A stretch of DNA of 32,000 bases from Acetohalobium arabaticum DSM 5501 (GTDB lineage: Bacteria; Bacillota; Halanaerobiia; Halobacteroidales; Acetohalobiaceae): contig NC_014378.1 in assembly GCF_000144695.1 (NCBI RefSeq), positions 376,781 to 408,780 of the forward strand. Reading direction: 5' to 3'. Below the pieces are notes generated by a model. That model did not search any database. It had not been told where the DNA came from and saw only the letters and a list, made by a program, of their open reading frames with translations. This document shows, one piece after another, positions 2,798 through 22,953 of the stretch. How positions within the stretch are numbered: position 1 is the stretch's first letter; each line of letters starts with the position of its first letter. The translations under genes and the position numbers were made by a program.

Positions 2798-2826
2798 TTG
2801 ACTCATAAAAATATTTTATATATAAT
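2798..2826 (+). promoter_or_regulatory. Consensus sigma-A promoter P1 upstream of yedF
   Basis: TTGACT (2798-2803), 17-nt spacer, TATAAT (2821-2826). Confidence 0.55.
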
Positions 2827-2850
2827 TAAAATAAAGCTGTTGTAAGTTAA

Positions 2851-2879
2851 TTGACTGATAAAATAAGGTCATATATAAT
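2851..2879 (+). promoter_or_regulatory. Consensus sigma-A promoter P2 upstream of yedF
   Basis: TTGACT (2851-2856), 17-nt spacer, TATAAT (2874-2879). Confidence 0.55.
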
Positions 2880-2935
2880 TTGAATAAAAATAATTATCAT
2901 ATGATCAAATAATTTATTTAATCGGAGGGATATAG

Positions 2936-3529: not shown

Positions 3530-3536
3530 AATATTA

Positions 3537-3960: not shown

Positions 3961-4013
3961 TAAAGTTGCAATTTGTGGCCCATCAATTAATAATAGAAGG
4001 GGTGAATAAAGCA

Positions 4014-6393: not shown

Positions 6394-7695
6394 TTGAAGT
6401 TAGCTAAATATTTTATTCATAAACCTAATCAAATCCAACAAGTTGTATTAGGTTGTTTAGCCTATGCTAGTGCCAGATTATATAATATCGGCAATTATCA
6501 ACGTAAAAACTGGTCTAAAGATAGTGATGAAGATTATCCTGATTGGTATAAACAAAAAAAGCAATTAAAAGATAACTTTTGGTATAAAAACTTACCCTCC
6601 CAGACAGCACAGGAAACACTTAAAATTTTATCTGATAACTGGGATAGTTTTTATCAAAGTATGGAGGATTATCAAGATAATCCTGATAAATATAACGGCA
6701 ACCCTAATCCACCTAACTATAAATCTAAAGATAGTAAATTTAACTTCCGTTATCTTAATAATGGTTTTAAAATTATTGATGGTAAGTTAAGATTATCTAT
6801 CCCTAAACAATTAAAAAAGTATTTAAAAGAGGAATACTCTATTACTAACAAATTCTTATGGATAAGAGTGCCTAATGAGCTGTTATCCAGTAATAGAGAT
6901 ATCCTTAACTCAACTACTAGAATTGAGTTTAAACCTTTAAGTGATGATACTTATAAGGTAATCTTAACTTATAAAGTAGATACACCAACTATTAAAGAAG
7001 ATAACGGTAATTATTTAAGTATTGATCTAGGCATTAATAATTTAATGACCTGTTACAGCAATCAAAATCAGGAGAGCTTTATTATTGATGGCGGACAGTA
7101 TTTAGCTATTAATCGTTACTTCGACAAACAGATTAAACATTATCAATCTATTTTGAATGGTCAAGGTAAAAAGACTTCTAAACGTATCCAACAATTATAT
7201 AAGAAACGACGCAAGCAGCTGTTTCATTTAATCCATAGTGCTACTAAAAAAGTAGTTAATTACTGTATTGAAAATAATATATCTAGAGTAATCGTTGGTA
7301 ATATAAAAAATATTCGTGATGATGCTGATCTAGGTAAACAGACTAATCAAAAACTACATAAACTACCTTTTGATATTATCTATCACCAACTAGAGTATAA
7401 ACTTCATTTACAAGGGATTACCTTAATTAAGAAGAGTGAGAAATATACCAGCCAATGCAGCCCTTACAGTAAAAAAGTAACTAAGAAATATGGTAATAAA
7501 TCTAATCGTATTAAGCGAGGTTTATATGTAGATGAAGATAACAATCAAGCTTTTAATGCCGATAGTGTGGGTGCATTTAATATCTTACGCAAATATTTAC
7601 AGCAGCGACGTAAAGGTAAAGATATTACTCTGCAGGTTAAAGGCTTATCAAATCCAGTTATATTTAACTGGAATAATCATCAATTTGCAGCTTAA
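6394..7695 (+). CDS. tnpB: TnpB-like protein (IS605 OrfB family, RNA-guided nuclease family), atypical
   Basis: RBS AAGGAGGTGA and a TTG start. It has RuvC-I (LSIDLGINNLMTC), YTSQ.C, and RuvC-III (FNADSVGAFNI). The usual CxxC...CxxC zinc finger is absent. The usual hhhEDL RuvC-II motif reads VIVGNI. Confidence 0.85.
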   Translation: MKLAKYFIHKPNQIQQVVLGCLAYASARLYNIGNYQRKNWSKDSDEDYPDWYKQKKQLKDNFWYKNLPSQTAQETLKILSDNWDSFYQSMEDYQDNPDKYNGNPNPPNYKSKDSKFNFRYLNNGFKIIDGKLRLSIPKQLKKYLKEEYSITNKFLWIRVPNELLSSNRDILNSTTRIEFKPLSDDTYKVILTYKVDTPTIKEDNGNYLSIDLGINNLMTCYSNQNQESFIIDGGQYLAINRYFDKQIKHYQSILNGQGKKTSKRIQQLYKKRRKQLFHLIHSATKKVVNYCIENNISRVIVGNIKNIRDDADLGKQTNQKLHKLPFDIIYHQLEYKLHLQGITLIKKSEKYTSQCSPYSKKVTKKYGNKSNRIKRGLYVDEDNNQAFNADSVGAFNILRKYLQQRRKGKDITLQVKGLSNPVIFNWNNHQFAA

Positions 7696-8102: not shown

Positions 8103-8174
8103 GGAGGATTGATCGGAAAGATCACATAGGCTCTAACCCTATGCAGCCGGGTGTAACTCCCGGATCCTCCGCCA
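8103..8174 (+). tRNA. pylT: tRNA-Pyl (anticodon CUA, amber suppressor), CCA encoded
   Basis: The cloverleaf folds as follows:
- acceptor GGAGGAT (8103-8109) / ATCCTCC (8164-8170);
- one nt between the acceptor and D stems;
- D stem GATC/GATC with a 5-nt loop;
- 6-bp anticodon stem CATAGG/CCTATG;
- loop CUCUAAC with CUA at 8133-8135;
- 3-nt variable loop;
- T loop UGUAACU without T-psi-C;
- discriminator G.
It is close to the Methanosarcina and Desulfitobacterium tRNA-Pyl sequences recalled from the literature. Confidence 0.92.
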
Positions 8175-8215: not shown

Positions 8216-8361
8216 AAGTTTTAATTATATTTTTGCTGGAAAAGACTATAAAATAAAAACTATAGAGGAGGGATAATAAAATAAGATAGCTTTTAAATGG
8301 GATTAACAGAAAGAGTTTAAAGCGTAATGAACTAAAATTTTTAACAGAAAGGGTGAGATAT

Positions 8362-9822
8362 ATGACCATCAGAAATTCACGATCTTATTATCCCAACAAA
8401 ACTGGTTTTAGTGTTGATATGTTTACTGATGAAGAGTTAGAAGAGATTCATTTAGCTACACTAGAAATGTTATGGGATAATGGAATGCATGTTACAAATG
8501 AAGAAGCACTGGATATCTTTGCTGATGCTGGAGCTAAGGTTAATCGTAGCGAAGGGAAAGTTAGAATTCCTCCTTATATGGTAGAGGATGCTATTAAGTC
8601 CGCTCCACCTCAAATTTTAATGGCTGGACGTGACCCAGAAAATGATGTGGTAATTGGAGGTAGTCGAGTCAACTTTACGACCTTTGGAGCTGGAGTTAAG
8701 ATAGAAGACTTAGAAACAGGAGGATTAAGAGATACTCTTAAACAGGATGTAGCAGACACTGCTTTAGTAGCAGATTATCTTGATCAGATTGATATTTATT
8801 CTCATGCAGTAACAGGGGGGGACTCTCCTGATGCAAATATTGATCTGCATGATGCTGAGGCCTTCTTGAATAATACTACTAAGCATTGTCATCATATTGA
8901 TTTAACTTGTGGTGAAAATGCGAAAAAGTATTTTGAAATGGGTGCCGCTATTATGGGCGGTATGGATGAATTAAGAGAGAGACCTATTATTTCTGGTTTG
9001 GTCTGTCCACAGAGTCCTCTTGAATTGCATGGAGATGCTGCTCAGATTATTATTGAACATGCACGGGCTGGTATTCCGGTTAATGTATTATCCATGGCTA
9101 TGTCGGGAGCTACTTGTCCAGTATCTGTAGCAGGGACTTTGGTAGACCATAATGCCGAGGTGCTAACAGGAGTTATCCTAACTCAGCTAGTCAATAAAGG
9201 AGCACCAGTAATTTACGGTAGTTCTACCACGACTTTTGATTTACAGCATTCTACTGCGCCTGTAGGTGCTCCAGAACTAGGGATGTGTAATGCAGGAGTA
9301 GCTAAGTTGGCTCGTTATTACAACTTACCTAGTTATACTGCAGGTGGCTAGGCGGACAGCAAGTTATGTGACGTACAATCCGGATATGAAAAGACTATGA
9401 CTTATATGCTGCCAGCTATGGCAGGTGCTAACGTGCTTTACGGCTCAGGAATGATAGAGTTAGGAGTAACCTTCAGCTATACTCAGCTTATGATCGATAA
9501 TGAGATAGCTAGAATGGTAAGAAGAGTAATCAATGGTGTAGAAGTTAACGATGAAACTCTTGCTACTGATATAATGAAGGAGGTTGGCTGTGGAGGAAAC
9601 TTCCTTACTCAGCAGCATACATTAGACCTTATGGACCAGGAACAGTCTAGATCTGATCTCTTCGATAGAAAGATGAGAGAAGGTTGGGAGAATGACGGTT
9701 CTCAAGGTGCTGCTGAAAAAGCTACTGAAAGAGCAAAAACAATTCTTAATGACCATACTCCTGAGCCGTTAGATCAAGAGGTTCAAGATAAATTAAGTGA
9801 AATCGTAGAAAGTGTTAAGTAA
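8362..9822 (+). CDS. mttB: Trimethylamine:corrinoid methyltransferase, with the in-frame TAG (9349-9351) decoded as pyrrolysine
   Basis: Track ORFs 8353-9351 and 9397-9822 share one frame (1044 nt offset) and are separated only by the TAG. The joined protein is about 486-489 aa with ...YNLPSYTAGG-O-ADSKLCDVQSGYEK..., which matches the position of Pyl in MttB (about residue 334). ATG 8362 is preferred over GTG 8353 because of the RBS AAAGGGTGAG. Confidence 0.9.
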
Positions 9823-9982
9823 GACCGCGTTAGCAGATAGATAAACTTATATACATGTTAATTGAGGGAGATGCAGAGTCATTTCCCTTGATTAACATCC
9901 CTATATTTAAAATTTAAGTAAGTTATTCTATCCGGAAAGAAAGTTTGATTGGTTACCAATTATATTAAGGAGGTTTATAAAG

Positions 9983-10615
9983 ATGAGTCAATTTGACGAT
10001 ATTGCAGAAGCTGTAATTGATGGAGATGAGGAAAGAGTAGAAGAATTAACACAGAATCTGGTTGATGAAGGTGAAGAGCCTAGTGAGATTATTAAGGAAG
10101 GATTAGTTGCCGGTATGGATGTAGTGGGGGATAGATTTAAAGCAGAAGAGATGTTTGTTCCGCAGGTATTGATTGCGGCAGAAGCTATGGCGAAAGGAAT
10201 GGATATAGTAAAGCCTCTTTTAGCTGATGATGATACTAGTTCTGAAGGGCTTGTACTAATGGCTACAGTAGAGGATGACTTACATGATATAGGTAAGAAC
10301 TTAGCTTCTATGTTACTGGAAGGTTCTGGGTTTAATGTAATAGATTTAGGAACCGATATTCCGCCAGAAGAATTTGTAGAAGGAGTAAAAGAGCATGAAC
10401 CTGATATTGTAGGAATGTCTTCTTTATTAACTACTACAATGCCTAATATGGAGAGTACAATTGAAGCATTAGAGGAAGCCGGAATCAGAGATGAAGTTAA
10501 AATAATGGTAGGAGGCGCTCCAGTAAGTCAGGAGTTTGCTGATGAAATAGGAGCAGACGCATATGCTCCTGATGGAAGTACTGCTTCTGATTTGGCTAAA
10601 GAAATTATTGATTAA
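9983..10615 (+). CDS. mttC: Trimethylamine corrinoid protein (B12-binding)
   Basis: It has an N-terminal helical B12-binding-2 domain and a Rossmann-like B12 domain with the DxHxxG motif (EDDLHDIGKN), SSLLTTT and MVGGAP. It lies directly downstream of mttB. Confidence 0.85.
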   Translation: MSQFDDIAEAVIDGDEERVEELTQNLVDEGEEPSEIIKEGLVAGMDVVGDRFKAEEMFVPQVLIAAEAMAKGMDIVKPLLADDDTSSEGLVLMATVEDDLHDIGKNLASMLLEGSGFNVIDLGTDIPPEEFVEGVKEHEPDIVGMSSLLTTTMPNMESTIEALEEAGIRDEVKIMVGGAPVSQEFADEIGADAYAPDGSTASDLAKEIID

Positions 10616-10618
10616 TAG

Positions 10619-10648
10619 ATATAGAGGAGGAAATTTCCTCCTCTATAT
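10619..10648 (+). terminator. Perfect 30-nt palindrome (hairpin), possibly an attenuator or terminator between mttC and pylSn
   Basis: ATATAGAGGAGGAAA|TTTCCTCCTCTATAT. Only a weak T tract follows it, so terminator function is uncertain. Confidence 0.45.
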
Positions 10649-10678: not shown

Positions 10679-10963
10679 ATGGCTCAGTATACTTTTAGAA
10701 AAAAGCAGGATTTATTTTCTTTATTAAAAGAGATGAAACTGTGGCCTTCTCGTTCGGGACTTTTACATGGGATTAAATCGATAGATACTTTAGGCAATTA
10801 TGCACGCCTTACTTTATATTGTGGTCAAGAGATTACAGTAAAGAATTCTAAAAACAGTCGGGCAGCTCGCTGGCTGCGTAATACAATGATGATTGAACCC
10901 TGTACAGAATGTGAAGTGCCTGATTGGAAGATAGAGAAATATTCTAATACTACTTTTAAATAA
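10679..10963 (+). CDS. pylSn: Pyrrolysyl-tRNA synthetase, N-terminal tRNA-binding domain protein
   Basis: About 94 aa. LWPSRSGLLHGIK...NSKNSRAARWLRN...CTECEVPD matches the PylS N-domain pattern (LWMSRTGTLHKIK...NSRSCRTARAFRH...CKRCRVSD in Methanosarcina). A separate pylSn gene is typical of bacteria. Confidence 0.85.
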   Translation: MAQYTFRKKQDLFSLLKEMKLWPSRSGLLHGIKSIDTLGNYARLTLYCGQEITVKNSKNSRAARWLRNTMMIEPCTECEVPDWKIEKYSNTTFK

Positions 10964-10989
10964 ATTCAAGAGGGATGGAGGCCTGGATA

Positions 10990-11829
10990 ATGAAATTTAC
11001 TCAAGCTCAACAGCAGAGGATAATTGAACTGGATGCTGAAGGTAAATATAAAGGATATATTAAGGATAAGGAATTTGATTCTTCTAAAGAACGAGAGGAT
11101 GACTTTCAGAAAATAGAGGATGATTTAGTTAATAAGAATAAAAAAAGACTAGAAGAGTTACAAGGCCGTCATCAGCAGCCGGTATTAAGGAGAATGGAGT
11201 TTCGGTTAGTTGAATTACTCAAAGAGTCTGGATTTATGGAAGTAGTTACTCCTATAAAGTTAGCCAAAGGCCATTTAGAGAAGATGGGAATTGATGAAGA
11301 ACATTCCCTCTGGAAACAGGTATACTGGCTTGAGGAAGATAACTACTGTCTGCGTCCGATGTTGGCTCCTAATTTATATTATTTGCTGGGTTATTTTGAA
11401 AATTCATTATCTAAGCCTATTAAAATATTTGAAGTAGGTCCCTGTTTTCGCAGAGAATCCCGAGGAAGTAAACATCTTTCCGAGTTTACAATGATGAATC
11501 TAGTAGAATTAGGACCTAAGGGAGATCCCACTGAGAGATTGAAATCATTAATTGCAGAATTAATGGATTATCTAGAACTTGAATATGAGTTAGAGGAAGA
11601 GGAATCGGTGGTTTATGGTAAAACTATCGATGTAGTAGTAAACGGTATAGAAGTTGGTTCTGGGGCTGTAGGTCCCCATTTGTTGGATGAAGCCTGGAAT
11701 ATCAGTGATTCCTGGGTAGGAGTTGGTTTCGGTTTAGAGAGATTGATAATCTGTAAAGAAGAATTTGAAAGCATCAAACGGGTTGGCCGGAGTCTTATCT
11801 ATCAGGATGGAGTAAGGTTGAATATTTAA
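10990..11829 (+). CDS. pylSc: Pyrrolysyl-tRNA synthetase, catalytic (class II) domain protein
   Basis: LRPMLAPNLYYLLGY....PIKIFEVGPCFRRESRGSKHLSEFTMMNLVELG is the PylS catalytic core signature. ATG 10990 is preferred (RBS AGAGGGATGGAGG). The alternative in-frame ATG is at 10975. Confidence 0.9.
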   Translation: MKFTQAQQQRIIELDAEGKYKGYIKDKEFDSSKEREDDFQKIEDDLVNKNKKRLEELQGRHQQPVLRRMEFRLVELLKESGFMEVVTPIKLAKGHLEKMGIDEEHSLWKQVYWLEEDNYCLRPMLAPNLYYLLGYFENSLSKPIKIFEVGPCFRRESRGSKHLSEFTMMNLVELGPKGDPTERLKSLIAELMDYLELEYELEEEESVVYGKTIDVVVNGIEVGSGAVGPHLLDEAWNISDSWVGVGFGLERLIICKEEFESIKRVGRSLIYQDGVRLNI

Positions 11830-11846
11830 AAATAAGGGTGGGAATA

Positions 11847-12953
11847 ATGAAAGAAAATAATTTAGATTTACAGGTGATACTGGATAAAGCTAAAAGCGGT
11901 AGGGAACTTAAATTTGAAGAAATATATAAAATTCTAACTTTAAAAGATAAAGAGTCCCTAGAGCAGGTATTTAAAGCAGCTAGAGAGATTCGAAGAAATT
12001 ATTTTGGAAATAAAATATTTTTATATGGGTTTGTCTACTTTTCTACTTATTGTAGAAATGAGTGTACCTTCTGTTATTATCGAAAGTCAAATAATAAGAG
12101 CCCTCGCTATAGAAAAACTCCGGATGAAATTCTTCAGATTGCAGAATCTTTGATGAATTCCGGAGTTCATTTAATTGATTTAACTATGGGAGAAGATCCA
12201 GCTATATATACTGAAAATAATTTTGGAAGTTTAAAAGAAATAGCCAGCCAAATTAAAGATCAAACCAATCTGCCAGTGATGGTATCTCCAGGAGTTTTAC
12301 CGGAAGATGAGGTATTAGAGTTGGAAGATTGTGGAGCTGACTGGTATGCCTGTTATCAGGAAACTCATAATAGAGATCTGTTTACTGAATTAAGAGTAAA
12401 CCAAAGTTATGATCGGAGAATGGAAACAAAGATGTTGGCGAAGAATAATGGATTATTAATTGAAGATGGAATTCTGCTAGGAGTAGGAGAGGAGATCGAA
12501 GACCGTGTTAATTCAATTTTGACGATGAAGGAGTTAGGGGTACATCAGGGCAGAGTAATGAGTTTTGTAGCTCAGGAAGGTACTCCTATGGCTGATTCTA
12601 ATACTCCACCTCGAAGAGAAGAACTGTTGGTAATTGCTGCTTTAAGGTTAGTTTTACAGGATAGATTAATTCCTGCTTCTTTAGATGTAGATGGAATTGA
12701 GGGTTTAGAGGATAGATTGAATGCTGGAGCCAATGTTGTAACATCTTTAATTCCTCCTAGTTCTGGTTTAGCCGGTGTTTCTAATTCAACGCTGGATATT
12801 GATGAAGGCCATCGAACCGTAAATGGAGTACAGAAGGTGATTGAAGAGTTAGATTTGAAAATTGCTGCTCCAGAGTTGTATAAAGAATGGGTTGAGACTA
12901 AAAAGATGAATTTGAATCATTTAGACAGAGATGTGATTGTCTGCAGAGGATAG
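11847..12953 (+). CDS. pylB: Methylornithine synthase (radical SAM lysine mutase)
   Basis: Radical SAM CxxxCxxC motif (CRNECTFCYY), BioB-like architecture, and a position after pylS. ATG 11847 is preferred (RBS AAGGGTGGG). The alternative start is GTG 11838. TAG stop at 12951-12953. Confidence 0.9.
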   Translation: MKENNLDLQVILDKAKSGRELKFEEIYKILTLKDKESLEQVFKAAREIRRNYFGNKIFLYGFVYFSTYCRNECTFCYYRKSNNKSPRYRKTPDEILQIAESLMNSGVHLIDLTMGEDPAIYTENNFGSLKEIASQIKDQTNLPVMVSPGVLPEDEVLELEDCGADWYACYQETHNRDLFTELRVNQSYDRRMETKMLAKNNGLLIEDGILLGVGEEIEDRVNSILTMKELGVHQGRVMSFVAQEGTPMADSNTPPRREELLVIAALRLVLQDRLIPASLDVDGIEGLEDRLNAGANVVTSLIPPSSGLAGVSNSTLDIDEGHRTVNGVQKVIEELDLKIAAPELYKEWVETKKMNLNHLDRDVIVCRG

Positions 12954-12969
12954 TATGGAGGAGATAGGA

Positions 12970-14934
12970 ATGAATATTATTTTGGGCATAGATGCTGGAG
13001 GTACTTATACGGATTCTGTTCTCTATGATAGAGGAAATCAAGAATTAATTGATAAGAATAAGGCACTTACTACTTATTATAATTTAACTGAAGGAATTAA
13101 TAATACTATTACTGGATTAAAAGAAGAATGGTTTGATACAGTAGAGTTAGTAACTTTATCTACAACTCTGGCTACTAATGCTATTGTAGAGGGGAGGGGT
13201 GGAAGAGTAGGACTACTTCTGTTGGGATATGACCAGCAGCTTATGGAGCAGTTTACATTGGATGAAGAGATTCCTGGTAAAAAAAGAGAGATTATTAAGG
13301 GCAGATTTAACACTAGAGGAGAAAAAATTGAAAGTTTAGATGAAGAGGAAATAGAAAAGATAATCAAAAAGTGGCAGGGAAGTATAGATGCAGTGGCCAT
13401 TTCTGGATATATGAGTCCCCGCAATCCAGCCCATGAATTAAAGGCTAAAGGGATACTGGCTGAAATGACAGACCTGCCAGTAGTCTGCGGCCATGAATTA
13501 ACTAATAAATTAAATTCTATTCAACGGGCAACTACAGTAGCCTTAAATGCCAGCTTGATTCCTATGATCAAAGAATTGAATCAAAAAGTAAAAGAGGTTC
13601 TGCAGGTTAATGGAATTGAAGCACCAGTGATGATGGTGAAAGGAGACGGTTCATTAGTAAGCAGCCAGGCAGTTATAGATAAGCCTATAGAGACTGTATT
13701 ATCGGGACCAGCAGCCAGTACAATTGGTGCTAAGCATCTGGGGGAGGTAAATGAAGGAGTAATTGTAGATATTGGTGGTACTACTACTGATATTTCTGTA
13801 ATTAAGGATGGTTATCCTGATTTAAATTCCGATGGAGCAGTAGTAGGCGGCTGGTTAAGTAGTATAGAAGCAATTAAATTTAAAACTATCGGCTTAGGTG
13901 GAGACAGCAGAATCTATTTTAATCAGGATGGAGAATTAAAGATTGGTCCTAAAAGGGTAATTCCTTATTCGGCAGCTGCTGTAGAGCATAGGGAAGTTTT
14001 AACTGATTTACATAGAATGAGCGAAGAAAAAGTAAGCGGAGCAAGAAGAGAATTTTTGACTTTAAATAGAGCTGGGGTAGATATCGAATTCAATAAGCAG
14101 GAAGAGCAGATAATAAATGTATTAGAAACTGGTCCTAAATCAATAGCTCAGATAGTAGAAAGCATTGGTCTGGTTAGCCATAGAATTTTAGATTTAGAGC
14201 GGCTAGAAAGACTTGGAGTGATTAAAAGAATTGGTCTGACTCCAACGGATGTCTTACATGTGTTAGGGGAGTATACTATCTGGGAGGAGGAAGCAGCAGA
14301 ATTAGGACTTGAATTACTGATGAAGAGAATGAAAAGTGATAAGTTGACTTTAGCAGAGAAGTTAAAAGAAAGAGTAATCAATAAAGAAGCTAAAGAGATT
14401 ATTGCTTATTTGATCAGCCAGGATTATGAAGATTATAATCAGAACAGATGTGGATTATGTGAAAGATTAATAGAGTCCTGTTTAACTGAAGAAACCAAGA
14501 ATTTTTTATTGGATTTTAAGTCCCAGTTACCAATTGTAGCCTTGGGAGCTCCAGCCGAAGCTTATATGTCTAATTTGGATGATTATTTGGAGACAGATAT
14601 TATAGTGCCTGAAAATTATGAAGTAGCCAATGCTGTTGGTACTGCTGTAGGTAGAATCCTGATTAAACAAGAAGTGGAGATTAAGGTGAGAGGAAATGAT
14701 TATATTGTTCATGCGCCAGGCAGAAAGAAAGAATTTATTGATTTAGAGGAAGCAGTTGAGTGGGCTAAACAGAAAGGAAAGAAAGCAGCTGTTAAAGAAG
14801 CTAAGACTGCTGGAGCTAAAAGTATTGAAGTAGAAATAGAGGTAGAAAGAAGAAAAGCAGATATTAGTGCTCAAGGATCTAAAATGTTATTAGGTATTGG
14901 AGTAAAGATTATTGTTACCGGATTACCATTTTAG
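12970..14934 (+). CDS. Hydantoinase/oxoprolinase-family (HyuA-like, ASKHA ATPase) protein embedded in the pyl operon
   Basis: It has the N-terminal ILGIDAGGTYTDSVLYD...STTLATNAIVEGRG (hydantoinase A N-domain pattern) and GPAASTIGAKHLG....IVDIGGTTTDISVIKDG...IGLGGDS (hydantoinase_A pattern). ATG 12970 is preferred (RBS GGAGGAG). The alternatives are TTG 12937 and ATG 12955, both in the same frame as 12970; only the 12937 start overlaps pylB. TAG stop. Confidence 0.8.
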   Translation: MNIILGIDAGGTYTDSVLYDRGNQELIDKNKALTTYYNLTEGINNTITGLKEEWFDTVELVTLSTTLATNAIVEGRGGRVGLLLLGYDQQLMEQFTLDEEIPGKKREIIKGRFNTRGEKIESLDEEEIEKIIKKWQGSIDAVAISGYMSPRNPAHELKAKGILAEMTDLPVVCGHELTNKLNSIQRATTVALNASLIPMIKELNQKVKEVLQVNGIEAPVMMVKGDGSLVSSQAVIDKPIETVLSGPAASTIGAKHLGEVNEGVIVDIGGTTTDISVIKDGYPDLNSDGAVVGGWLSSIEAIKFKTIGLGGDSRIYFNQDGELKIGPKRVIPYSAAAVEHREVLTDLHRMSEEKVSGARREFLTLNRAGVDIEFNKQEEQIINVLETGPKSIAQIVESIGLVSHRILDLERLERLGVIKRIGLTPTDVLHVLGEYTIWEEEAAELGLELLMKRMKSDKLTLAEKLKERVINKEAKEIIAYLISQDYEDYNQNRCGLCERLIESCLTEETKNFLLDFKSQLPIVALGAPAEAYMSNLDDYLETDIIVPENYEVANAVGTAVGRILIKQEVEIKVRGNDYIVHAPGRKKEFIDLEEAVEWAKQKGKKAAVKEAKTAGAKSIEVEIEVERRKADISAQGSKMLLGIGVKIIVTGLPF

Positions 14935-14972
14935 ATTAAATATTGATCTAAAGTATATAGGGGGCGAATTAA

Positions 14973-16145
14973 GTGCGAAGAATTGCTATAATAGGTGGGG
15001 GATTACAGGGAATTGAAGTTACTTATCTGGCACAGAAGGCCGGATATAAAGTGCTGTTAATCGATAAAAGAAGGGATGTTCCGGCCTTTAATTTGGCAGA
15101 TGAGACTATAATCTGTGATATAATGAAAGAAAAGGAGAAGTTTAAGGAGAGTTTAGATGGTGTAGATTTAATTCTGCCTACTACCGAGAATAATGCAGCT
15201 TTACAGACATTAAAGAGTATGGATTCTAAGATAGACATTCCTATTGTATTTGACTGGGCTGCCTATCAGATTACTAATTCTAAAGAGAAATCAAAGAAAT
15301 TATTCAGTGAATATGATATTCCTCAGGCTGATTTATGGCCTAAAGCAGACTTTCCTTTGATCATTAAACCTAGCTCTGCTAGCGGTAGTCAAGAGGTGCA
15401 TAGGGCAGAAAATAAGCAGGAATTGGATGAAGTATTAACTAATCTGAAAGCAGCAGAAAGTGATCTAATTATCGAAGAATATCTTCCAGGACCTTCCTAT
15501 TCTATCGAGGTAATTGGCTATCAGGATCAGATATTGCCTTTGGTAACTACTTATTTAGATTTTGATGTTGATTATGACTGTAGACAGGTGATTTCCACTG
15601 ATAATTTAGAATTCATTGATACAGAACTAAGGGAGAGATTAAATGAATTAAGCAGTAAGATTGCTAAAAAGATCGGGCTCAATGGGATTATGGATCTGGA
15701 AGTGATCAGAGGCGAGAATGATATAAAGGTATTAGAAATCGATGCCCGCTTTCCCAGCCAGACTCCGATTACAGTCTTCTGGGCTACTGGTTTAAATATG
15801 GTGGAACTGTTGGTTAAGCTCTATTTAGAGGAAGGAATAGAGCCTGAATCCAAAGATTCATTCTCGGAGAATAAATCAGTCATTTATGAACATATTAAGA
15901 TGCAGAATGAAGTTTTAGAGGTCTGTGGAGAACATATTATTTCTCGAAGTACAGATTTAAGGCTGGAGAGGGACTTCTTTGGAGCTGTTGAAGCGATAAC
16001 CAATTATGGTTTTAGAAAGCAAGAATGGGTAGCTACTTTAATTTTTACTGCCGATTCTTTGGTAGAAGCATTTAAACAGAGAGATCGAACTTTAAATAAA
16101 ATTAGTGAAATAAATTCGTTATCTAAAACTAAAGTAAAGAGGTGA
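14973..16145 (+). CDS. pylC: 3-methylornithine--L-lysine ligase (ATP-grasp)
   Basis: N-terminal IAIIGGGLQGIEVTYLAQKAGYKVLLIDK, ATP-grasp body (LIIKPSSASGSQ..., LEIDARFPSQTP), and a position between pylB and pylD. Confidence 0.88.
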   Translation: MRRIAIIGGGLQGIEVTYLAQKAGYKVLLIDKRRDVPAFNLADETIICDIMKEKEKFKESLDGVDLILPTTENNAALQTLKSMDSKIDIPIVFDWAAYQITNSKEKSKKLFSEYDIPQADLWPKADFPLIIKPSSASGSQEVHRAENKQELDEVLTNLKAAESDLIIEEYLPGPSYSIEVIGYQDQILPLVTTYLDFDVDYDCRQVISTDNLEFIDTELRERLNELSSKIAKKIGLNGIMDLEVIRGENDIKVLEIDARFPSQTPITVFWATGLNMVELLVKLYLEEGIEPESKDSFSENKSVIYEHIKMQNEVLEVCGEHIISRSTDLRLERDFFGAVEAITNYGFRKQEWVATLIFTADSLVEAFKQRDRTLNKISEINSLSKTKVKR

Positions 16146-16149: not shown

Positions 16150-16956
16150 ATGACTAGATTATTTACTGATCAGATAAGCCATATTCCAGAGACAATAGAC
16201 GAATATAACCAGGAATTGAAGGATAAGACCGGGTGTGGGCTAGTAGGCTTGGCCAATCATGCTTTAGGAACTGAGTATGAAACTGCTTTTTTGGCTCAAA
16301 AGAGAGCTGCTGTTGTCCCTGTTACCGTAGGTGAAGGGATTATTCAGGGATTCAGTAAATCAGTAGCAGCTATTTTAGAATATATGGGGTTTGAGATTTT
16401 GGTTACCAATAGTTCAGATGTAAAAGGAATTAAAGAAGCATATCAAAAGAAAGCAGATATTCTTTTGATGGCCGATGATGATGAATTTATAGCTTTGAAT
16501 CTGGAAGAGAATAAATATGTTGATAATAACTGGGCTACAGCAAGGGCTTATGTGAATGCTTTGGAATTAATGGTAGGCGGATTGAAAGATAGAACAGTAG
16601 TTGTACAGGGATTAGGCCCAATAGGGAGAGAGGCTGTTAGAGCCTTAATAGAGAAGGAAGCCCGGATAAAGGTCTATGATGTTGATGAGCAGAAGATGAT
16701 AAAATTAACAGAGGAGGTTGAATCTGTAGAGGCTGTAAAGAATCCGGAACAAGAATTAAAACATAATAAATTAATTCTAGAAGCAACTCCTGTTGATAAT
16801 ACTATACAAGAGGATTATATCGATCAAAAAACATATATTTCTGCTCCTGGAGTTCCCTTAGGTGTCTGCAAAACTGCTATAAGTAGTATTGAAGATAGAT
16901 TAATTCATGATCCGTTACAGTTGGGAGTAAGCTTGATGGCGGCTGGGGTTTTATAG
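16150..16956 (+). CDS. pylD: Pyrrolysine synthase (3-methylornithyl-N6-L-lysine dehydrogenase)
   Basis: VPVTVGEGIIQGFS, ILLMADDDEF, Rossmann VVVQGLGPIGREA, LEATP, APGVPLG and DPLQLG match the PylD pattern recalled from Methanosarcina PylD. TAG stop at 16954-16956. Confidence 0.85.
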   Translation: MTRLFTDQISHIPETIDEYNQELKDKTGCGLVGLANHALGTEYETAFLAQKRAAVVPVTVGEGIIQGFSKSVAAILEYMGFEILVTNSSDVKGIKEAYQKKADILLMADDDEFIALNLEENKYVDNNWATARAYVNALELMVGGLKDRTVVVQGLGPIGREAVRALIEKEARIKVYDVDEQKMIKLTEEVESVEAVKNPEQELKHNKLILEATPVDNTIQEDYIDQKTYISAPGVPLGVCKTAISSIEDRLIHDPLQLGVSLMAAGVL

Positions 16957-17820
16957 ATGTTCTATAAATTTGTTGAAGATTTCTGAGCGGTATTTATCTT
17001 TATGATAAATAATACTGAAGTTTCTTTTAAATTCAATTCCTGAGATATTTACTTTAGTTATTTTTCCTTTTTTTCTTTCTTCTTTGGTTGAGATTTCAGG
17101 TAAGATAGAGACTCCAATGTTGGCTGCTACAGCTTTTTTAATTGCTTCAATATTATTAAAAACATGAGTGATTTGACAAGATATATTAAAATTAGCCAAA
17201 ATATTTTCAATAACTTTTCTGGTACCGCTTCCCTCTTCCCGCATGATAAAGTCTTCTTCATTGATTTTTTCCGGGGAGAGGTTTTTCCAGTGGCTCCATT
17301 CATGTTTAGTAGAACATACCAATTGAAGCTGGTCTGTAAAGAACTTTTCAACCACAATATTATCAGAACTGATAGGTCCTTCTACTAATCCTAAATCGAT
17401 TTTGTTATCTAAGACCATCTGTTCTATAACACTGGTGTTATCAATTATAAAGGGTAGGTTAATATCTTTATATTTCTGCTGGAATTCTTCTATTATCTGG
17501 GGTAATAGATAAGTGCCTATAGTCATACTGCTTCCAATTCGCAGCTGTCCTTGGTTTAGATTGGATATATCCTCCATTGCATTTTTGGTTTCATTTACAA
17601 GGTTTAGAATCCGCTTGCTATAATTAAGAAGTATTTCACCAGGGTGAGTTAATTTTAATCTTCTGTTTAGCCGGTCAAATAACTTCAAATTTAATTTATC
17701 TTCTAAGGTAGAGATAGTTTGACTGATAGCAGGCTGACTTATGTATAATTTTTTAGCTGCAGCTGACATATTTTTAGTTTCGCAGACTGTAACAAATATT
17801 TTAAGCTCTCTTAAATTCAA
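16951..17820 (-). CDS. LysR-family transcriptional regulator
   Basis: N-terminal wHTH (LRELKIFVTVCETKNMSAAAKKLYISQPAISQTISTLEDKL) and a C-terminal LysR substrate-binding domain. It is convergent with pylD, and its TAA stop abuts the pylD stop. Confidence 0.85.
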   Translation of the reverse strand: MNLRELKIFVTVCETKNMSAAAKKLYISQPAISQTISTLEDKLNLKLFDRLNRRLKLTHPGEILLNYSKRILNLVNETKNAMEDISNLNQGQLRIGSSMTIGTYLLPQIIEEFQQKYKDINLPFIIDNTSVIEQMVLDNKIDLGLVEGPISSDNIVVEKFFTDQLQLVCSTKHEWSHWKNLSPEKINEEDFIMREEGSGTRKVIENILANFNISCQITHVFNNIEAIKKAVAANIGVSILPEISTKEERKKGKITKVNISGIEFKRNFSIIYHKDKYRSEIFNKFIEHL

Positions 17821-18439: not shown

Positions 18440-19858
18440 ATGAAAGTTAAAAACAAGTCATTTTCTGGAGGTTATACGTTTAATCTTGAGGGTAAGCCTC
18501 AGGATAGAGTTGTTGAATTAGAAACTCCTTCGAAAGTTGTTGTTCCTTTAAAGCAGGGGTTTGGCAGAGAAGTAGAACCCAATGTTGAGCCGGGTGAAGA
18601 AGTGAAAGCTGGTCAGATTATTGGTAGAGATGATGAATCTTTGTCTACTCCTATACAGGCAACGGTTAGCGGAACTGTAACAGAGATTACGGATTTACCT
18701 TCAAATAGGAGAGCAGTTGTCATTGAGTCAGATGGGACAGATGATTGGCAGCAATTAGAAGATCATTCATCTAATTGGAATAATCTATCAGCTGAAGAAA
18801 TTGAAGAATTACTTTATACTTCCGGAGTTACTTCCTTGGATAACCAGGGAATTCCGACTAGATATAAGAGTTCATCAATTTCTAAAGATGAAGTAGAGCA
18901 TATAATTATTGAAGGTACTGAGTCTAATCCTTATAACTTATCATTATCAGCTCTTTTAGAAGAAAATAAGTTATCACAGTTTGTTGATGGATTACAGATA
19001 CTCCACAAAGTCTTTCCACAGGCTAAAGTACATGTAACTATCAATGAAAATCGACAGCAATTAATTAAAGAATTAAGTGATTCTGCTGGAAATTATGATT
19101 GGATTCAGCTGTATAGTTCAGCTCCTAAGTATCCTCAAGGTAAGGACGAAATATTAGTTCCTACAATTTTAGGTGACGATTATAAAGTAAGAGCTTCTGT
19201 AGCAAGTTATGGTGTAATTGTCTTAAAAGTCCAGACTATTCTGCATATTTATGATGCTGTTGTAGAAGGAAAACCGTTGATAGAGCGGATGGTATCGCTG
19301 GCTGGAGAGGGCTGGCAGGAAAATATTCACCTTAAAGTTCGAATTGGTACTTCTATTGAAGCTATTATGAAAAATTACTCTGGTAGTGATAACCAGAGGC
19401 TTATTATTGGTAATTTATTAACAGATAAATCTATTGCAGATTACGAGATACCGGTTGACCGCACTTTTGATAATTTAAATGCGATCCCGGAACAGGAAGT
19501 AGGCGAGCCGTTTGCCTTTGCGCGTCCAGGAGCTCAAAAATATTCTTATTCAAATTCATTCTTATCTGCCTTACTTTCTGAGGTCTCTAGTAAATGTGAT
19601 ACTAATGTTCATGGAGAAGAAAGGGCTTGTATCTTCTGTGGTTACTGTGAAGATGCTTGTCCAGTTGATATAATTCCACATCTTGTTGAACGGTATACAG
19701 CTCAGAGCAGTGTCGATGAAGAGCTTATTAGATATGGTATTTTTGACTGTATAGAATGTAACTTGTGTACATTTGTTTGTCCATCTAAAAGACCTGTAGG
19801 TAAGCATATCAAGCAGGGAAAACAGTTCTTGCTCAATAAAGGATATGTAGTGAAGTAA
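18440..19858 (+). CDS. nqrA: Na+-translocating NADH:quinone oxidoreductase subunit A homolog with a C-terminal 2x[4Fe-4S] ferredoxin-type motif (RnfC-like feature)
   Basis: It has an N-terminal NqrA/RnfC barrel-sandwich region (AGQIIGRDDESLSTPIQATVSGTVTEI) and is the first gene of an ABCDEF-ordered operon. Two complete motifs are present: CIFCGYCEDACP and CIECNLCTFVCP. Confidence 0.75.
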   Translation: MKVKNKSFSGGYTFNLEGKPQDRVVELETPSKVVVPLKQGFGREVEPNVEPGEEVKAGQIIGRDDESLSTPIQATVSGTVTEITDLPSNRRAVVIESDGTDDWQQLEDHSSNWNNLSAEEIEELLYTSGVTSLDNQGIPTRYKSSSISKDEVEHIIIEGTESNPYNLSLSALLEENKLSQFVDGLQILHKVFPQAKVHVTINENRQQLIKELSDSAGNYDWIQLYSSAPKYPQGKDEILVPTILGDDYKVRASVASYGVIVLKVQTILHIYDAVVEGKPLIERMVSLAGEGWQENIHLKVRIGTSIEAIMKNYSGSDNQRLIIGNLLTDKSIADYEIPVDRTFDNLNAIPEQEVGEPFAFARPGAQKYSYSNSFLSALLSEVSSKCDTNVHGEERACIFCGYCEDACPVDIIPHLVERYTAQSSVDEELIRYGIFDCIECNLCTFVCPSKRPVGKHIKQGKQFLLNKGYVVK

Positions 19859-19913
19859 ATTTAAAGTATTTACAGGTTTAAAGTTGGATAGGATTAGGAG
19901 GGTGAATAAAAAA

Positions 19914-21005
19914 ATGAACGGACTTCGTAGTTTTTTTGATAATTTAAAGGAAAATGAATCACTACAGCCTGTAAAGCCCGTTATTGATGCAATGGCTGCA
20001 ATATTCTGTGGGCCAGATGAGGTTACAGCTTCTGCACCACATATTATGGATAATAATGATCTAAAAAGGTATATGTCAATGGTGATTTTAGCCTTGCTAC
20101 CTAGTACTTTTGCATCAATTTACTTTTACGGATGGCGTGCTGTATCAATTATTTTGGTATCTTATATAGTTGGTGGTTTAACGGAAGTACTCTTTGCTAT
20201 CATTAGAGGACATGAAATCGAAGAAGGATTTCTAGTAACAGGGCTTATCTTTCCTTTAGTTTTACCGCCGACGATTCCTTTATGGATGGTAGCAGTAGGG
20301 TCATTTTTTGGAGTTCTGTTTGGAAAAGAAGTTTTTGGCGGTACCGGACGGAATGTATTTAATCCAGCAATTGCAGGCCGTGTCTTTATTTCGATTGCCT
20401 TTCCAGTAGCTATGACTACTAAGTGGGCTAAACCTTTAGTTGGAGGTTTAGGAGGTTTTCTGAAGTATTCAGTTCCTGTTGATGCAATGTCGGCAGCAAC
20501 TCCGCTGGCAGTCTTTAAGACTAATGGTGAATTAGCATTCTCCACTTTTGAGCTTTTATTTGGTACAACTGGTGGTTCTATGGGAGAAACATTCCGGATT
20601 GGAATAATTATCGGTGGTCTATTCTTGATTGCTGCTAAAATAGTAGACTGGAGAATTCCAACGGCCTATTTAGGCTCTGTAGTAATCTTATCGGCTATTG
20701 GAAATCAGTTCTTACCAGGTACAGTTGCTCCACCATTATATCAATTGCTGACAGGAGGTCTCTTATTTGGTGCCTTCTTTATGGCAACTGATCCTGTAAC
20801 ATCGCCTTTTACAAAAGGCGGAACCTGGATATTTGGTATTTTTGCTGGATTTCTGACACTGATCTTTAGAAGCTTTAGTGGCTATGTTGAAGGTGTAATG
20901 TTTAGTATCTTACTGGCAAATTCAGTAACACCTTTGATCGATAGTATGGTTTTGAAGACGAAATTCAAACCAAAAGATGATGGGGTCGTTTACAATGAAA
21001 ACTAA
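19914..21005 (+). CDS. nqrB: NADH:quinone oxidoreductase subunit B (NqrB/RnfD family)
   Basis: Polytopic membrane protein with an NqrB-type N-terminal extension (..PVIDAMAAIFCGPDEVTASAPHIMDNNDLKRYM..), an FMN-attachment-like SAAT motif and FMATDPVTSP. ATG 19914 is preferred (RBS AGGAGGG). The track start is TTG 19884. Confidence 0.8.
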   Translation: MNGLRSFFDNLKENESLQPVKPVIDAMAAIFCGPDEVTASAPHIMDNNDLKRYMSMVILALLPSTFASIYFYGWRAVSIILVSYIVGGLTEVLFAIIRGHEIEEGFLVTGLIFPLVLPPTIPLWMVAVGSFFGVLFGKEVFGGTGRNVFNPAIAGRVFISIAFPVAMTTKWAKPLVGGLGGFLKYSVPVDAMSAATPLAVFKTNGELAFSTFELLFGTTGGSMGETFRIGIIIGGLFLIAAKIVDWRIPTAYLGSVVILSAIGNQFLPGTVAPPLYQLLTGGLLFGAFFMATDPVTSPFTKGGTWIFGIFAGFLTLIFRSFSGYVEGVMFSILLANSVTPLIDSMVLKTKFKPKDDGVVYNEN

Positions 21006-21621
21006 TACTAATTTAGAACAGGAAGTGCAAACTAAGGATATTCTGTTGGGTAAGGCTAAGATGATAATCTTTATGTTAATCTTGGGTTTGGTTGCAGCTG
21101 CTTTATTAGCAGGATTGGGTTCTTATACTAAACCTCTTGTGGAGAAGAATAAAGAATTAAGAACAATGCAGAAAGTTCTTGAATCTATTAATGTGGATTA
21201 TTCAAGTGATAATTTAACAAAGGTCTTTAAAGAAAAGGTCGAGGTTGTAAATGAAGGCGAATATAAATTTTACAAGACCAAAGAAGGCGAAGTTGCTTTT
21301 AAATTTGAAGGTGAAGGGATTTGGGCTCCAATTGTTGGTTTTGCAGCCCTTGACTCTGATATGGAAACCCTAGAAGGGATTTCAATAATGTCCCAGGGAG
21401 AGACTCCTGGTCTTGGCGGTCGAATTACAGAAGATTGGTTTCTTAATCAGTTTAAAGGCTTAAAACGCAATCCAAAAATTGTAGTTTTGAAAGCAAGTAA
21501 AACAGCTGATAATCCTAATGAAGTAGATGGGATTGCTGGAGCAACGTTGTCTGGTAAGGCTTTACAGAAGATTTTAAATAAGAATATTGAAGTGGCTTTG
21601 CAGAAACTGGAGGTGAACTAA
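20995..21621 (+). CDS. nqrC: NADH:quinone oxidoreductase subunit C (NqrC/RnfG family, FMN-binding)
   Basis: Single N-terminal TM helix and an FMN-binding domain with the flavinylation-type motif DGIAGATLSG. The start is ambiguous (ATG 20977 or 20995); either overlaps the nqrB stop. Confidence 0.75.
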   Translation: MKTNTNLEQEVQTKDILLGKAKMIIFMLILGLVAAALLAGLGSYTKPLVEKNKELRTMQKVLESINVDYSSDNLTKVFKEKVEVVNEGEYKFYKTKEGEVAFKFEGEGIWAPIVGFAALDSDMETLEGISIMSQGETPGLGGRITEDWFLNQFKGLKRNPKIVVLKASKTADNPNEVDGIAGATLSGKALQKILNKNIEVALQKLEVN

Positions 21622-21622
21622 T

Positions 21623-22315
21623 TTGAATCTGCTCAAAAAGTTATATTATAAGATAAAATATACTAGAGTATTTGCTCTGTTGTATAAGGGAATTTGGCAA
21701 GAGAATGATCTTTTGATAGCTTCTTTAGGCATCTGTTCTGCCCTGGCTGTAACTAATCGAGTAGCAAATGGAATTGCTATGGGGCTTGCAGTTACTTTCG
21801 TTATACTAGCTTCTTCAGTATTAACTGCAACTATTAGAGATTATATTCCAAAACGGGTAAGAATAGTTACCTATGTAATCTTTATTTCTACTTTTGTAGT
21901 TATAGTAGACCAATTTCTTAAAGCATTCTTTCCAGCAATTAGTCGAGCATTAGGTGCCTATGTAGGTTTAATTATAACTAACTGTTTAATTATGGGTCGA
22001 GCTGAGTCATTTGCTTCTAATAATCCAGTTGATTCTTCCATTGTAGATGCTTTTGCTCATGGTATGGGTTATACTATTGTCTTAATTATAGTATCTGCAG
22101 TAAGAGAAGTTCTTGCCTTTGGAACTATATTACAGATACCAGTTGTTGGAGAAGCCTGGACTAACTGGGTAGTAATGGCCATGGCTCCTGGAGGCTTCTT
22201 TGTTTTAGCAGCATTGACCTGGGTTGTCCGGGAGATTCAGATTTATGAAGAGGAAGAGGAATCTCCAAATAGTCGAGCTGAGCTTGATGCTTCTGAGAAA
22301 GTGTTGTCAGTTTAA
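21623..22315 (+). CDS. nqrD: NADH:quinone oxidoreductase subunit D (NqrD/RnfE family)
   Basis: Polytopic membrane protein with LGICSALAVT and ITNCLIMGRAE motifs typical of NqrD/RnfE. TTG start after RBS GGAGGTGA. Confidence 0.8.
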   Translation: MNLLKKLYYKIKYTRVFALLYKGIWQENDLLIASLGICSALAVTNRVANGIAMGLAVTFVILASSVLTATIRDYIPKRVRIVTYVIFISTFVVIVDQFLKAFFPAISRALGAYVGLIITNCLIMGRAESFASNNPVDSSIVDAFAHGMGYTIVLIIVSAVREVLAFGTILQIPVVGEAWTNWVVMAMAPGGFFVLAALTWVVREIQIYEEEEESPNSRAELDASEKVLSV

Positions 22316-22368
22316 GAATGAATAGTTTGTGCTAAACAAATTAATAAAATATATGGAGGAGAAGTAAA

Positions 22369-22953
22369 ATGCCTGAGTCTCTAAGTATTTTTATAGCAGC
22401 TATAACATCCCATAATCTAGCTTTGACTTACATTTTAGGGATGTGTCCGATGTTAGGGGTGTCAAAGAATCTTGATACGGCTGTTGGTATGGGAATATCA
22501 GTAGCTTTTGTAGTAGTGGTAACTTCTATGGTTAATTGGGGTATATATAATTTAATTTTAGTACCAACTGGAACTGAGATTTTAAATTATGTTGTCTTTA
22601 TTGTGGTTATAGGAGCAAGTGTACAGCTTTTAGAGATGATTTTAGAGAAATTTCTTCCTGCTTTATATAGAGCATTTGGAATCTTTTTACCGCTTATTAC
22701 GGTAAACTGTGTTGTACTTTCCATTTCACTCTTTATGACATTACGTAATTATGATTTTATAACTACACTTGTTTTTGCACTTGGTTCAGCAATCGGTTGG
22801 TTAATAGCAATTGCGATTGTTGCTGCCATAAGAGAGAAGCTTAAATTGACGGGAGATGTACCAAGAGGTCTGCAAGGACCAGGTATCGTTATGATAATAC
22901 TTGGCATAGTAGCCCTTGCATTTATGGGCTTCGGAGGGATGGTGAGTGTCTAA
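22369..22953 (+). CDS. nqrE: NADH:quinone oxidoreductase subunit E (NqrE/RnfA family)
   Basis: Polytopic membrane protein with LGMCPMLGVS and ITVNCVVL motifs typical of NqrE/RnfA. Confidence 0.8.
   Translation: MPESLSIFIAAITSHNLALTYILGMCPMLGVSKNLDTAVGMGISVAFVVVVTSMVNWGIYNLILVPTGTEILNYVVFIVVIGASVQLLEMILEKFLPALYRAFGIFLPLITVNCVVLSISLFMTLRNYDFITTLVFALGSAIGWLIAIAIVAAIREKLKLTGDVPRGLQGPGIVMIILGIVALAFMGFGGMVSV

Follow-up and report, generated by a model that had tools for sequence, protein, structure and literature searches.

The textbook parts list of corrinoid methyltransferase systems consists of a first methyltransferase (MT1), a corrinoid protein, a second methyltransferase (MT2) and a RamA/RACo activase, and RamA/RACo, GlmL, EutA and the diol dehydratase reactivase (DdrA) are all ASKHA, or Hsp70-like, ATPases that service B12 enzymes. 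One described setting for a gene of the kind considered here is a nine-gene glycine-betaine methyltransferase cluster in Candidatus Formimonas warabiya, the proteins of which are strongly induced on glycine betaine (mean log2 fold change -6.4 versus dichloromethane), and 'HydA, hydantoinase' and 'RACE' are among the legend labels of Figure 5 of the same study, for glycine-betaine clusters that include those of Frackibacter and Sporomusa ovata (Holland et al., PMC9768040). Two architectures of such clusters were described and no function was proposed for the HydA gene (PMC9768040); this is the one paper noting a gene of this type that a literature search returned. In a 32,000-nucleotide stretch of Acetohalobium arabaticum DSM 5501 (contig NC_014378.1, positions 376,781 to 408,780; hereafter the window), a homolog of the Formimonas gene (39% identity), which we call hyuX, lies between pylB and pylC, within the genes for pyrrolysine (Pyl) biosynthesis. 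Surveys of its family and of pyl loci show that hyuX is linked genomically to methyltransferase components and to genes encoding DUF1638, and that there is no general linkage to pyl genes. The pylB-hyuX-pylC arrangement is unusual, and the more interesting object is the widespread, unstudied HyuA-like family itself.

Genomic company of the HyuX family

The HyuX family is large, with at least 8,000 clusters at 90% identity (all at E <=1e-5; the best 120 are full-length and 37–88% identical), and its surroundings were surveyed in the available flanks of a sample of 80 metagenome loci. Several features are apparent. First, genes for MttB-family proteins, MtbB, corrinoid proteins (CoP), pterin-binding methyltransferases (pterin MT) or DUF1638 are present in the flanks of 47 of the 80 loci, and in 38 a gene for MttB, MtbB, CoP, MT2 or DUF1638 is no more than 300 nt from HyuX; where at least 8 kb is available on both sides, 13 of 17 loci are linked. 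Second, nearly all of the methyltransferase-system or DUF1638 neighbours (110 of 116) are on the same strand as HyuX. Third, unsupervised clustering of 438 open reading frames (ORFs) identifies MttB (27 loci), the corrinoid protein (18) and pterin MT (13) as recurrent neighbours, followed by DUF1638, a GntR regulator (7 loci) and a RACo-type activase, with everything else at four loci or fewer. Fourth, in a neighbour-joining tree the window protein groups with its Natroniella and Selenihalanaerobacter orthologs, all methyltransferase-linked, as a Halobacteroidaceae clade, and such linkage is present across most deep clades. Finally, pyl genes are present at only one of the 80 loci. No alternative conserved context is evident at the unlinked loci, where no family occurs in more than three of the 129 neighbour ORFs from about 22 loci, and Hydantoinase_B (PF02538) is not one of the recurrent families in 82 large neighbour ORFs from the 80 loci.

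The closest named homologs are likewise located in methyltransferase clusters without pyl genes alongside. The gene order is MttB-CoP-pterin MT-HyuX-regulator-MttB-MttB in Selenihalanaerobacter (57% identity), HyuX-regulator-MttB-CoP-MttB in Natroniella acetigena (55%) and CoP-MttB-CoP-MttB-HyuX-DUF1638-pterin MT-BCCT in Frackibacter (40%). Among the Halobacteroidaceae the position of HyuX differs by genome (after MT2 in Selenihalanaerobacter, beside a MutL-family gene directly upstream in N. acetigena, after pylD in Natroniella sulfidigena, and between pylB and pylC in Acetohalobium), and all of these cases are in a methyltransferase context. Across the family the linked systems comprise members of the MttB superfamily with and without Pyl, MtbB, corrinoid proteins, pterin-binding methyltransferases and DUF1638. 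HyuX accompanies two unrelated MT1 families, MttB and MtbB, which points to the corrinoid part that these systems have in common. A role in the trimethylamine (TMA) pathway, one of the suggestions made when the gene was first noticed, stands in a broader form, with the family tied to corrinoid methyltransferases generally.

Of 100 HyuX genes, 18 have a DUF1638 gene right beside them, and one whole clade of the HyuX tree consists of stand-alone DUF1638-HyuX pairs. Both as a neighbour and in fusions, DUF1638 is the partner most specific to HyuX. A phmmer search of the full library with the subfamily-specific C-terminal half of hyuX (residues 330–654), using representatives at 50% identity, recovered 1351 representatives (852 at E <=1e-10). 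About 15 of the best 150 are 915–959 aa in length, and all eight of the long homologs scanned have an N-terminal DUF1638 fused to HyuX; this gene fusion is strong evidence that both act together. An alignment of 26 DUF1638 proteins contains conserved Cys, His, Cys (in GYG.C) and Asp-Cys positions that might together make up a metal site. DUF1638 mutants of Phaeobacter inhibens, like RamA-like mutants, need methionine, the split B12-dependent methionine synthase failing in them, although the authors proposed no specific function for DUF1638 (Price et al. 2018, PMC5764234), and in Ruegeria pomeroyi the levels of RamA and DUF1638 increase alongside those of the MtgBCD betaine demethylase (PMC12478193). 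At one locus (L173 in our numbering, 387–4872) the gene after a fusion (~950 aa) encodes a CobQ-like amidotransferase (CbiA and GATase_3 domains) of cobalamin-biosynthesis type, a single case that is not used as evidence.

The converse survey began from pylD. An alignment of 35 PylD sequences was used to scan one genome per GTDB species, giving 153 confirmed loci; the counts that follow are for the best 80 of these, with up to 10 kb of flank, onto which the window proteins were mapped by tblastn. Both pylB and pylC are present at 55 loci; at 52 of them the two genes are at most 141 nt apart, three have a different order and none has an insert, bearing out the view that pylB and pylC normally have nothing between them. 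HyuX homologs (34–50% identity, near full length) are found within 10 kb of pylD at 14 of the 80 loci, never inside pylBCD, and 13 of the 14 are within 1.5 kb of a gene for MttB, MtbB, a corrinoid protein, a pterin methyltransferase or DUF1638. Seven Desulfobacterales metagenome-assembled genomes have the order HyuX-MT2-MttC-PylSc-PylC-PylD-PylSn, preceded upstream by divergent genes for MttB and MtbB (L016, L034, L035, L040, L055, L071 and L075); pylB is absent from the 10 kb around these loci and so must be elsewhere in those genomes.

Only a second Acetohalobium shares the pylB-HyuX-pylC-pylD-LysR-Rnf arrangement (HyuX 88% and PylD 84% identical). The closest pyl operon, that of N. acetigena (MttB 76%, PylB 65% identity), has the order of the window without HyuX (MttB-MttC-PylSn-Sc-B-C-D), with some 30 nt separating pylB from pylC and with DUF1638 encoded after pylD (L010, 10897–11502), and its HyuX ortholog is located elsewhere, beside the MttB homologs and corrinoid protein described above. 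The sister genera therefore carry one or other half of the HyuX/DUF1638 pair, N. acetigena having DUF1638 at the operon end and Acetohalobium having HyuX. The order in N. sulfidigena is tRNA-Pyl, mttC remnant, pylSn-Sc-B-C-D, HyuX, mtbB, corrinoid protein, pterin MT and flavin mononucleotide (FMN) reductase, such that HyuX directly precedes an mtbB gene with an in-frame TAG. The mttC remnant (84 aa, C-terminal B12-binding domain; L008/L011, 4083–4337), between tRNA-Pyl and pylSn, looks like the product of an mttB-mttC deletion from an ancestor arranged like Acetohalobium or N. acetigena.

The hyuX gene, its product and its surroundings

In the window, hyuX is part of a one-strand cluster at 8.1–17.0 kb with the order tRNA-Pyl-mttB(TAG)-mttC-pylSn-pylSc-pylB-hyuX-pylC-pylD, bordered by a convergent regulator gene:

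8103–8174, + strand: tRNA-Pyl, anticodon CUA (ARAGORN)
8353–9822, + strand: mttB, trimethylamine methyltransferase (Pfam MTTB, E 2e-62)
9983–10615, + strand: mttC, corrinoid protein, the proposed hyuX client (Pfam B12-binding_2 and B12-binding)
10679–10963, + strand: pylSn (TIGR03912, 115.7 bits)
10975–11829, + strand: pylSc (TIGR02367, 302.9 bits)
11838–12953, + strand: pylB, ending in TAG (TIGR03910, 474 bits; cut-off 348)
12970–14934, + strand: hyuX, HyuA-like ASKHA ATPase of 654 aa, with stop TAG at 14932–14934 (Pfam Hydant_A_N and Hydantoinase_A)
14973–16145, + strand: pylC (TIGR03909, 409 bits; cut-off 248)
16150–16956, + strand: pylD, ending in TAG (TIGR03911, 262 bits; cut-off 150)
16951–17820, - strand: LysR-family regulator, convergent with pylD (Pfam HTH_1 and LysR_substrate)

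PylB, PylC, PylD and both PylS halves exceed the NCBIfam equivalog cut-offs. The in-frame TAG of mttB is at 9349–9351 by reading of the sequence, and a PYLIS element is present at 9349–9448 (Rfam PYLIS_3, 84 bits). The LysR-family gene is in the same position in the second Acetohalobium (locus L007).

The hyuX reading frame can be opened at an ATG (12970–14934, 654 aa) or at an alternative TTG (12937–14934, 665 aa). The ATG is the better start: a GGAGG ribosome-binding site is present at 12958–12962, 8 nt 5′ of it, and the N-terminus MNIILGIDAGGT aligns at its first residue with the first residue of a 70-homolog consensus, which indicates that this is the real start. The gap from the pylB stop (TAG, 12951–12953) to the ATG is 16 nt, that from the hyuX stop to the GTG start of pylC at 14973 is 38 nt, and no convincing internal terminator or promoter was found at either junction. 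The G+C content of hyuX is like that of the flanking genes, and a repeat search over 12700–15200 returned only short chance matches, none of them bracketing the gene. The translation is 100% identical to an A. arabaticum protein in NCBI. There is no HyuB-like ORF in the window, where the only ORFs of more than 500 aa are hyuX, ProRS and an ABC-F ATPase. The original prediction is thus correct as to coordinates, spacing to pylB and pylC, preferred start, lack of a HyuB-like candidate, and the motifs GIDAGGTYTD, DIGGTTTDIS and GLGGDS, all of which are found in the translation.

Two Pfam families account for the first half of the protein, Hydant_A_N (PF05378) at residues 5–166 (118 bits, cut-off 25.2; E 5e-34) and Hydantoinase_A (PF01968) at residues 186–329 (112.8 bits, cut-off 22.9; E 2.5e-32), the latter over model positions 1–146 of 291 only; weak N-terminal matches to MutL/GlmL and BcrAD/BadFG correspond to the common ASKHA phosphate motif. 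Profile matches to HyuA proteins in the PDB are similarly confined to residues 4–329. An AlphaFold2 model built from a 70-sequence alignment is confident (predicted local distance difference test 88.6, predicted template-modelling score 0.86), and the seven best Foldseek matches to it in the PDB are all HyuA-type subunits (E 8e-31 to 1e-24, template-modelling score 0.55–0.63, identity 15–19%), namely acetone carboxylase beta, N-methylhydantoinase, acetophenone carboxylase alpha and gamma, and caprolactamase alpha at the top, with generic ASKHA proteins following. Residues D8, G10-G11-T12, D267, G269-D274, G310-S313, G526-A527-P528, N554 and G557 are invariant in the 70 homologs and make up the phosphate-1, phosphate-2 and adenosine motifs of the ATP-binding site (DxGGT, DxGGTTTD, GGDS and GAP...N..G), whereas only one Cys is nearly invariant. 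The NCBIfam scores are far under the equivalog cut-offs (CapA 140 bits versus 1000, ApcC 66 versus 1500, ApcA 40 versus 1250). With a full-length HyuA fold and invariant ATP motifs, hyuX is a divergent, probably ATP-hydrolysing HyuA-like protein, in agreement with the ASKHA identity first assigned to it from its motifs.

The model also contains a winged-helix-like insertion in the HyuA core at residues ~362–422 (window 13957–14235), built of a strand, three helices and a strand. One fusion homolog has a weak DprA_WH Pfam match at the equivalent position, and in another the Hydantoinase_A model runs across the region with about 70 extra residues. The adjacent segment TPTDVLHVLG (residues 424–433) was considered as a cobalamin-ligand motif of the 'DxxHxxG' type and rejected, the Hydantoinase_A model of one fusion extending across the region; we take it to be the TxTD..LG segment of the HyuA family.

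Several further features of the window are recorded here. The pylB, hyuX and pylD genes end in TAG (12951–12953, 14932–14934 and 16954–16956), that is, three of eight operon genes versus two of the 22 other window genes, numbers too small for significance; the second Acetohalobium (L007, hyuX 88% identical) has the same three stops and N. sulfidigena has TAA in all four genes. Read-through by Pyl-tRNA would add 25, 4 and 10 residues, respectively. Terminator-like stem-loops on the + strand, 3′ of mttB (9855–9898, 19-bp stem) and of mttC (10624–10640), could be attenuators or processing sites between the highly expressed mtt genes and the pyl genes that follow. An IS605-type TnpB gene (OrfB_IS605 plus a Cas12f1-like TNB domain; 6394–7695, + strand) is directly upstream of tRNA-Pyl, and in both Acetohalobium genomes a six-gene cluster of Rnf/Nqr type (18440–24045, + strand, in the window) comes immediately downstream of the pyl operon. 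The L007 counterpart of its last gene (22954–24045) has Fer2, FAD_binding_6 and NAD_binding_1 domains and is NqrF-like, and no RnfB-type polyferredoxin is evident in the cluster. Upstream, selD (selenide, water dikinase; 4014–5048, + strand) has an in-frame TGA at 4056–4058 in the motif GGG-U-AAKIGP, with a reading frame past the TGA of 4095–5048 and a YedF/SirA-like gene just upstream (2936–3529). The TGA indicates a selenocysteine-containing SelD, so that the window encodes both selenocysteine- and Pyl-containing proteins.

Proposed role of hyuX and competing explanations

On balance we favour the view that hyuX encodes an ATP-dependent accessory of the corrinoid methyltransferase system and is not a gene of the pyrrolysine pathway; as to its activity, we would give 'corrinoid maintenance' an even chance. 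In this proposal hyuX belongs to the mttB-mttC half of a mixed mtt/pyl transcription unit, and its product would bind and hydrolyse ATP and so keep the corrinoid cofactor of MttC usable, the candidate ATP-driven step being corrinoid loading, exchange or repair, or help with reductive re-activation. The subfamily of HyuA-like ASKHA ATPases to which it belongs would act without a HyuB subunit, would work with DUF1638 as an accessory of corrinoid-dependent methyltransferases, and would operate beside, not in place of, a reductive activase of the RamA/RACo type. That ASKHA proteins recurrently service B12 enzymes makes the idea plausible, and is not evidence for it. The simplest reading of the present location is that a lineage-specific rearrangement within the mixed mtt/pyl operon put hyuX between pylB and pylC, a move that the operon could have borne, since growth on TMA calls for every gene in it. 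TnpB genes or fragments adjoin three Halobacteroidaceae loci, those of the window and of both Natroniella species (L003, 1–342; L008, 868–1089), and such elements could have driven rearrangements of these clusters.

Several observations weigh against this proposal. Thirty-three of the 80 metagenome loci have no methyltransferase gene nearby, although many of these 33 are on short contigs, and some HyuX clades in the tree are consistently unlinked to methyltransferases. The three DUF1638-HyuX fusions with contexts examined (L170, L171 and L173) are stand-alone genes, and none adjoins methyltransferase genes. There is no DUF1638 gene in the window, and an A. arabaticum DUF1638 protein is not among the best 120 listed relatives of the N. 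acetigena protein in a word-seeded search. The hyuX protein itself lacks Fe-S and B12-binding motifs; we infer that it physically contacts the corrinoid protein, and which step ATP drives is guesswork. Lastly, the tight pylB-hyuX-pylC packing is kept in two Acetohalobium genomes, which leaves formal room for an added, Acetohalobium-specific link of hyuX to Pyl.

A bolder form of the proposal, which we advance tentatively and would not back at even odds, is that HyuX and DUF1638 constitute a new ATP-dependent machine that services the corrinoid of methyl-transfer proteins by loading, exchange or repair, that it is widespread in anaerobes living on methylamines and betaines and acts beside the reductive activases, and that one half of it has been wired into the TMA-inducible operon of Acetohalobium. 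In one version of such a machine, amide or lactam activation of the HyuA type could repair damaged corrin side chains, for example a c-lactam.

The alternative that survives best is that hyuX replaces RamA/RACo, driving the Co(II) to Co(I) reduction on the corrinoid protein with electrons from a separate ferredoxin or from DUF1638. RACE proteins are ASKHA ATPases too, the operon in the window has no RACE gene, and HyuX is commoner than RACE in bacterial pyl/methylamine loci (14 versus 5 of 80); moreover, the Cys, His and Asp-Cys positions of DUF1638 could bind a metal or cluster. Two architectures of glycine-betaine cluster have also been described, with 'HydA' and 'RACE' both among the gene labels of the figure legend (PMC9768040). 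However, HyuX and a true RACo-type gene are present together at nine of the 80 metagenome loci, often adjacent and often with the latter directly downstream of HyuX, and CoP-MT2-HyuX-DUF1638-RACE occur in a row (L044; Paradesulfitobacterium); this co-occurrence argues for distinct roles. The single nearly invariant Cys and the lack of an Fe-S domain in hyuX also count against the substitution, as do an hhalign probability of 1.6% against a RACo-type protein and the absence of RACo from the 50 best Foldseek matches, and we regard it as unlikely.

A second alternative makes hyuX a catabolic enzyme, an ATP-dependent lactamase or carboxylase-type protein acting on a small nitrogenous molecule that feeds or follows the methyltransferase step. 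Its best fold and sequence matches are indeed to caprolactamase alpha, N-methylhydantoinase and subunits of acetone and acetophenone carboxylase, and degradation of N-methylhydantoin yields sarcosine, an N-methyl compound. The characterised relatives all need a HyuB-type partner, however, and none is present in the window or among the 82 large neighbour ORFs; the scores are far below the equivalog cut-offs (140 bits versus 1000, for example); and the family accompanies methyltransferases for unrelated substrates (TMA, dimethylamine and betaines) and is fused to DUF1638, itself tied to methionine synthase. We consider this explanation quite improbable.

The main idea of the original prediction was that hyuX is an accessory of Pyl synthesis that processes, salvages or proofreads a biosynthetic intermediate, for example one with a ring or an amide that would be opened at the cost of ATP. 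Lactams are substrates of HyuA-type enzymes, and amide and imine rings are formed in Pyl chemistry; the gaps of 16 and 38 nt inside pylBCD have no terminator-like site at the junctions, the arrangement is kept at 88% identity in the second Acetohalobium, and homologs are within 10 kb of pylD at 14 of 80 species loci. Against these points, not one of the 55 pyl loci has an insert separating pylB from pylC, 13 of the 14 pyl-proximal homologs are beside methyltransferase or DUF1638 genes with none inside pylBCD, 79 of the 80 family loci are without pyl genes and the nearest orthologs are in pyl-free methyltransferase clusters. In addition, there is no HyuB hydrolase partner in the window, and the three genes pylBCD are enough for E. 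coli to make Pyl. A literature search found no paper naming a hydantoinase together with pylB and pylC. By distribution, the Pyl accessory role is largely refuted, and its probability is very small. As to the two signs that had been named as telling against it, the position is indeed absent from other pyl clusters, whereas insertion scars were not found and the gene is kept in the second Acetohalobium.

Finally, it is just as improbable that hyuX is a functionless passenger dropped in by rearrangement, perhaps via the neighbouring IS605/TnpB element, since, although the pylB-pylC position is found only in Acetohalobium, a TnpB gene is present at 6394–7695 and TnpB fragments flank the Natroniella loci, the ORF is intact with its own ribosome-binding site and all family-invariant residues, its 88% identity where PylD of the relative has 84% indicates conservation similar to that of its neighbours, its G+C matches the flanking genes, flanking repeats were not found, and it is exactly the type of gene that accompanies mtt genes elsewhere.

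The turnover of methylamines and betaines in sediments, in hypersaline mats and in the gut is driven by corrinoid methyltransferase systems, and in the gut it includes removal of the health-relevant compound trimethylamine. A large family embedded in methyltransferase operons and partly fused to the orphan DUF1638 suggests that an accessory function is missing from the present description of these systems. For that function hyuX is a concrete candidate, which would have MttC as its client and use ATP as co-substrate, and it may improve in-vitro reconstitution and heterologous expression of corrinoid methyltransferase systems. To those who study pyrrolysine, the additional gene of the A. arabaticum cassette offers no evidence for a new biosynthetic step.

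Comparison with HyuA-type enzymes and helpers of B12 enzymes

The HyuA-type subunits of known structure (PDB 6yra_A, 9h03_A, 5svc_B and 5l9w) resemble hyuX in Pfam domains, whole-chain fold, ASKHA motifs and length (~650–720 aa). They differ in sequence, with only 15–19% identity, a profile match that ends at residue 329 and scores far short of the equivalog cut-offs, and in that hyuX has no HyuB nearby and appears to carry the winged-helix-like insertion within the latter half of the Hydantoinase_A region. The contexts also differ, being lactam or ketone catabolism for the HyuA-type enzymes and corrinoid methyltransferases for hyuX.

RamA/RACo proteins (RACE, COG3894) are, like hyuX, ASKHA-type ATPases encoded beside corrinoid proteins and methyltransferases, but have ferredoxin-type, RACo_middle and RACo_C_ter domains that hyuX lacks. 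Membership of hyuX in this family was rejected, there being no Pfam matches to Fer2/Fer4, RACo_middle or RACo_C_ter (DUF4445).

GlmL/MutL, EutA and DdrA come from the same ATPase superfamily as hyuX and each serve a B12 enzyme, and hyuX has a weak N-terminal match to MutL. Assignment to the GlmL/MutL family fails over the full length: the match to MutL (PF13941) is confined to residues 4–55, some 50 positions that surround the first phosphate motif, and the GlmL score (NF040745) is 30.5 bits versus a cut-off of 475. The clients of GlmL-type proteins are adenosylcobalamin radical enzymes, whereas those of hyuX would be methyl-transfer corrinoid proteins. The DUF1638 and RamA-like system of Phaeobacter, like HyuX-DUF1638, has ties to methyl transfer that depends on a corrinoid; in the studies of Phaeobacter and Ruegeria the partner of DUF1638 is a RamA-like protein and a HyuA-like protein is not named (PMC5764234, PMC12478193), whereas in the family described here DUF1638 is paired with, and in some cases fused to, HyuX.

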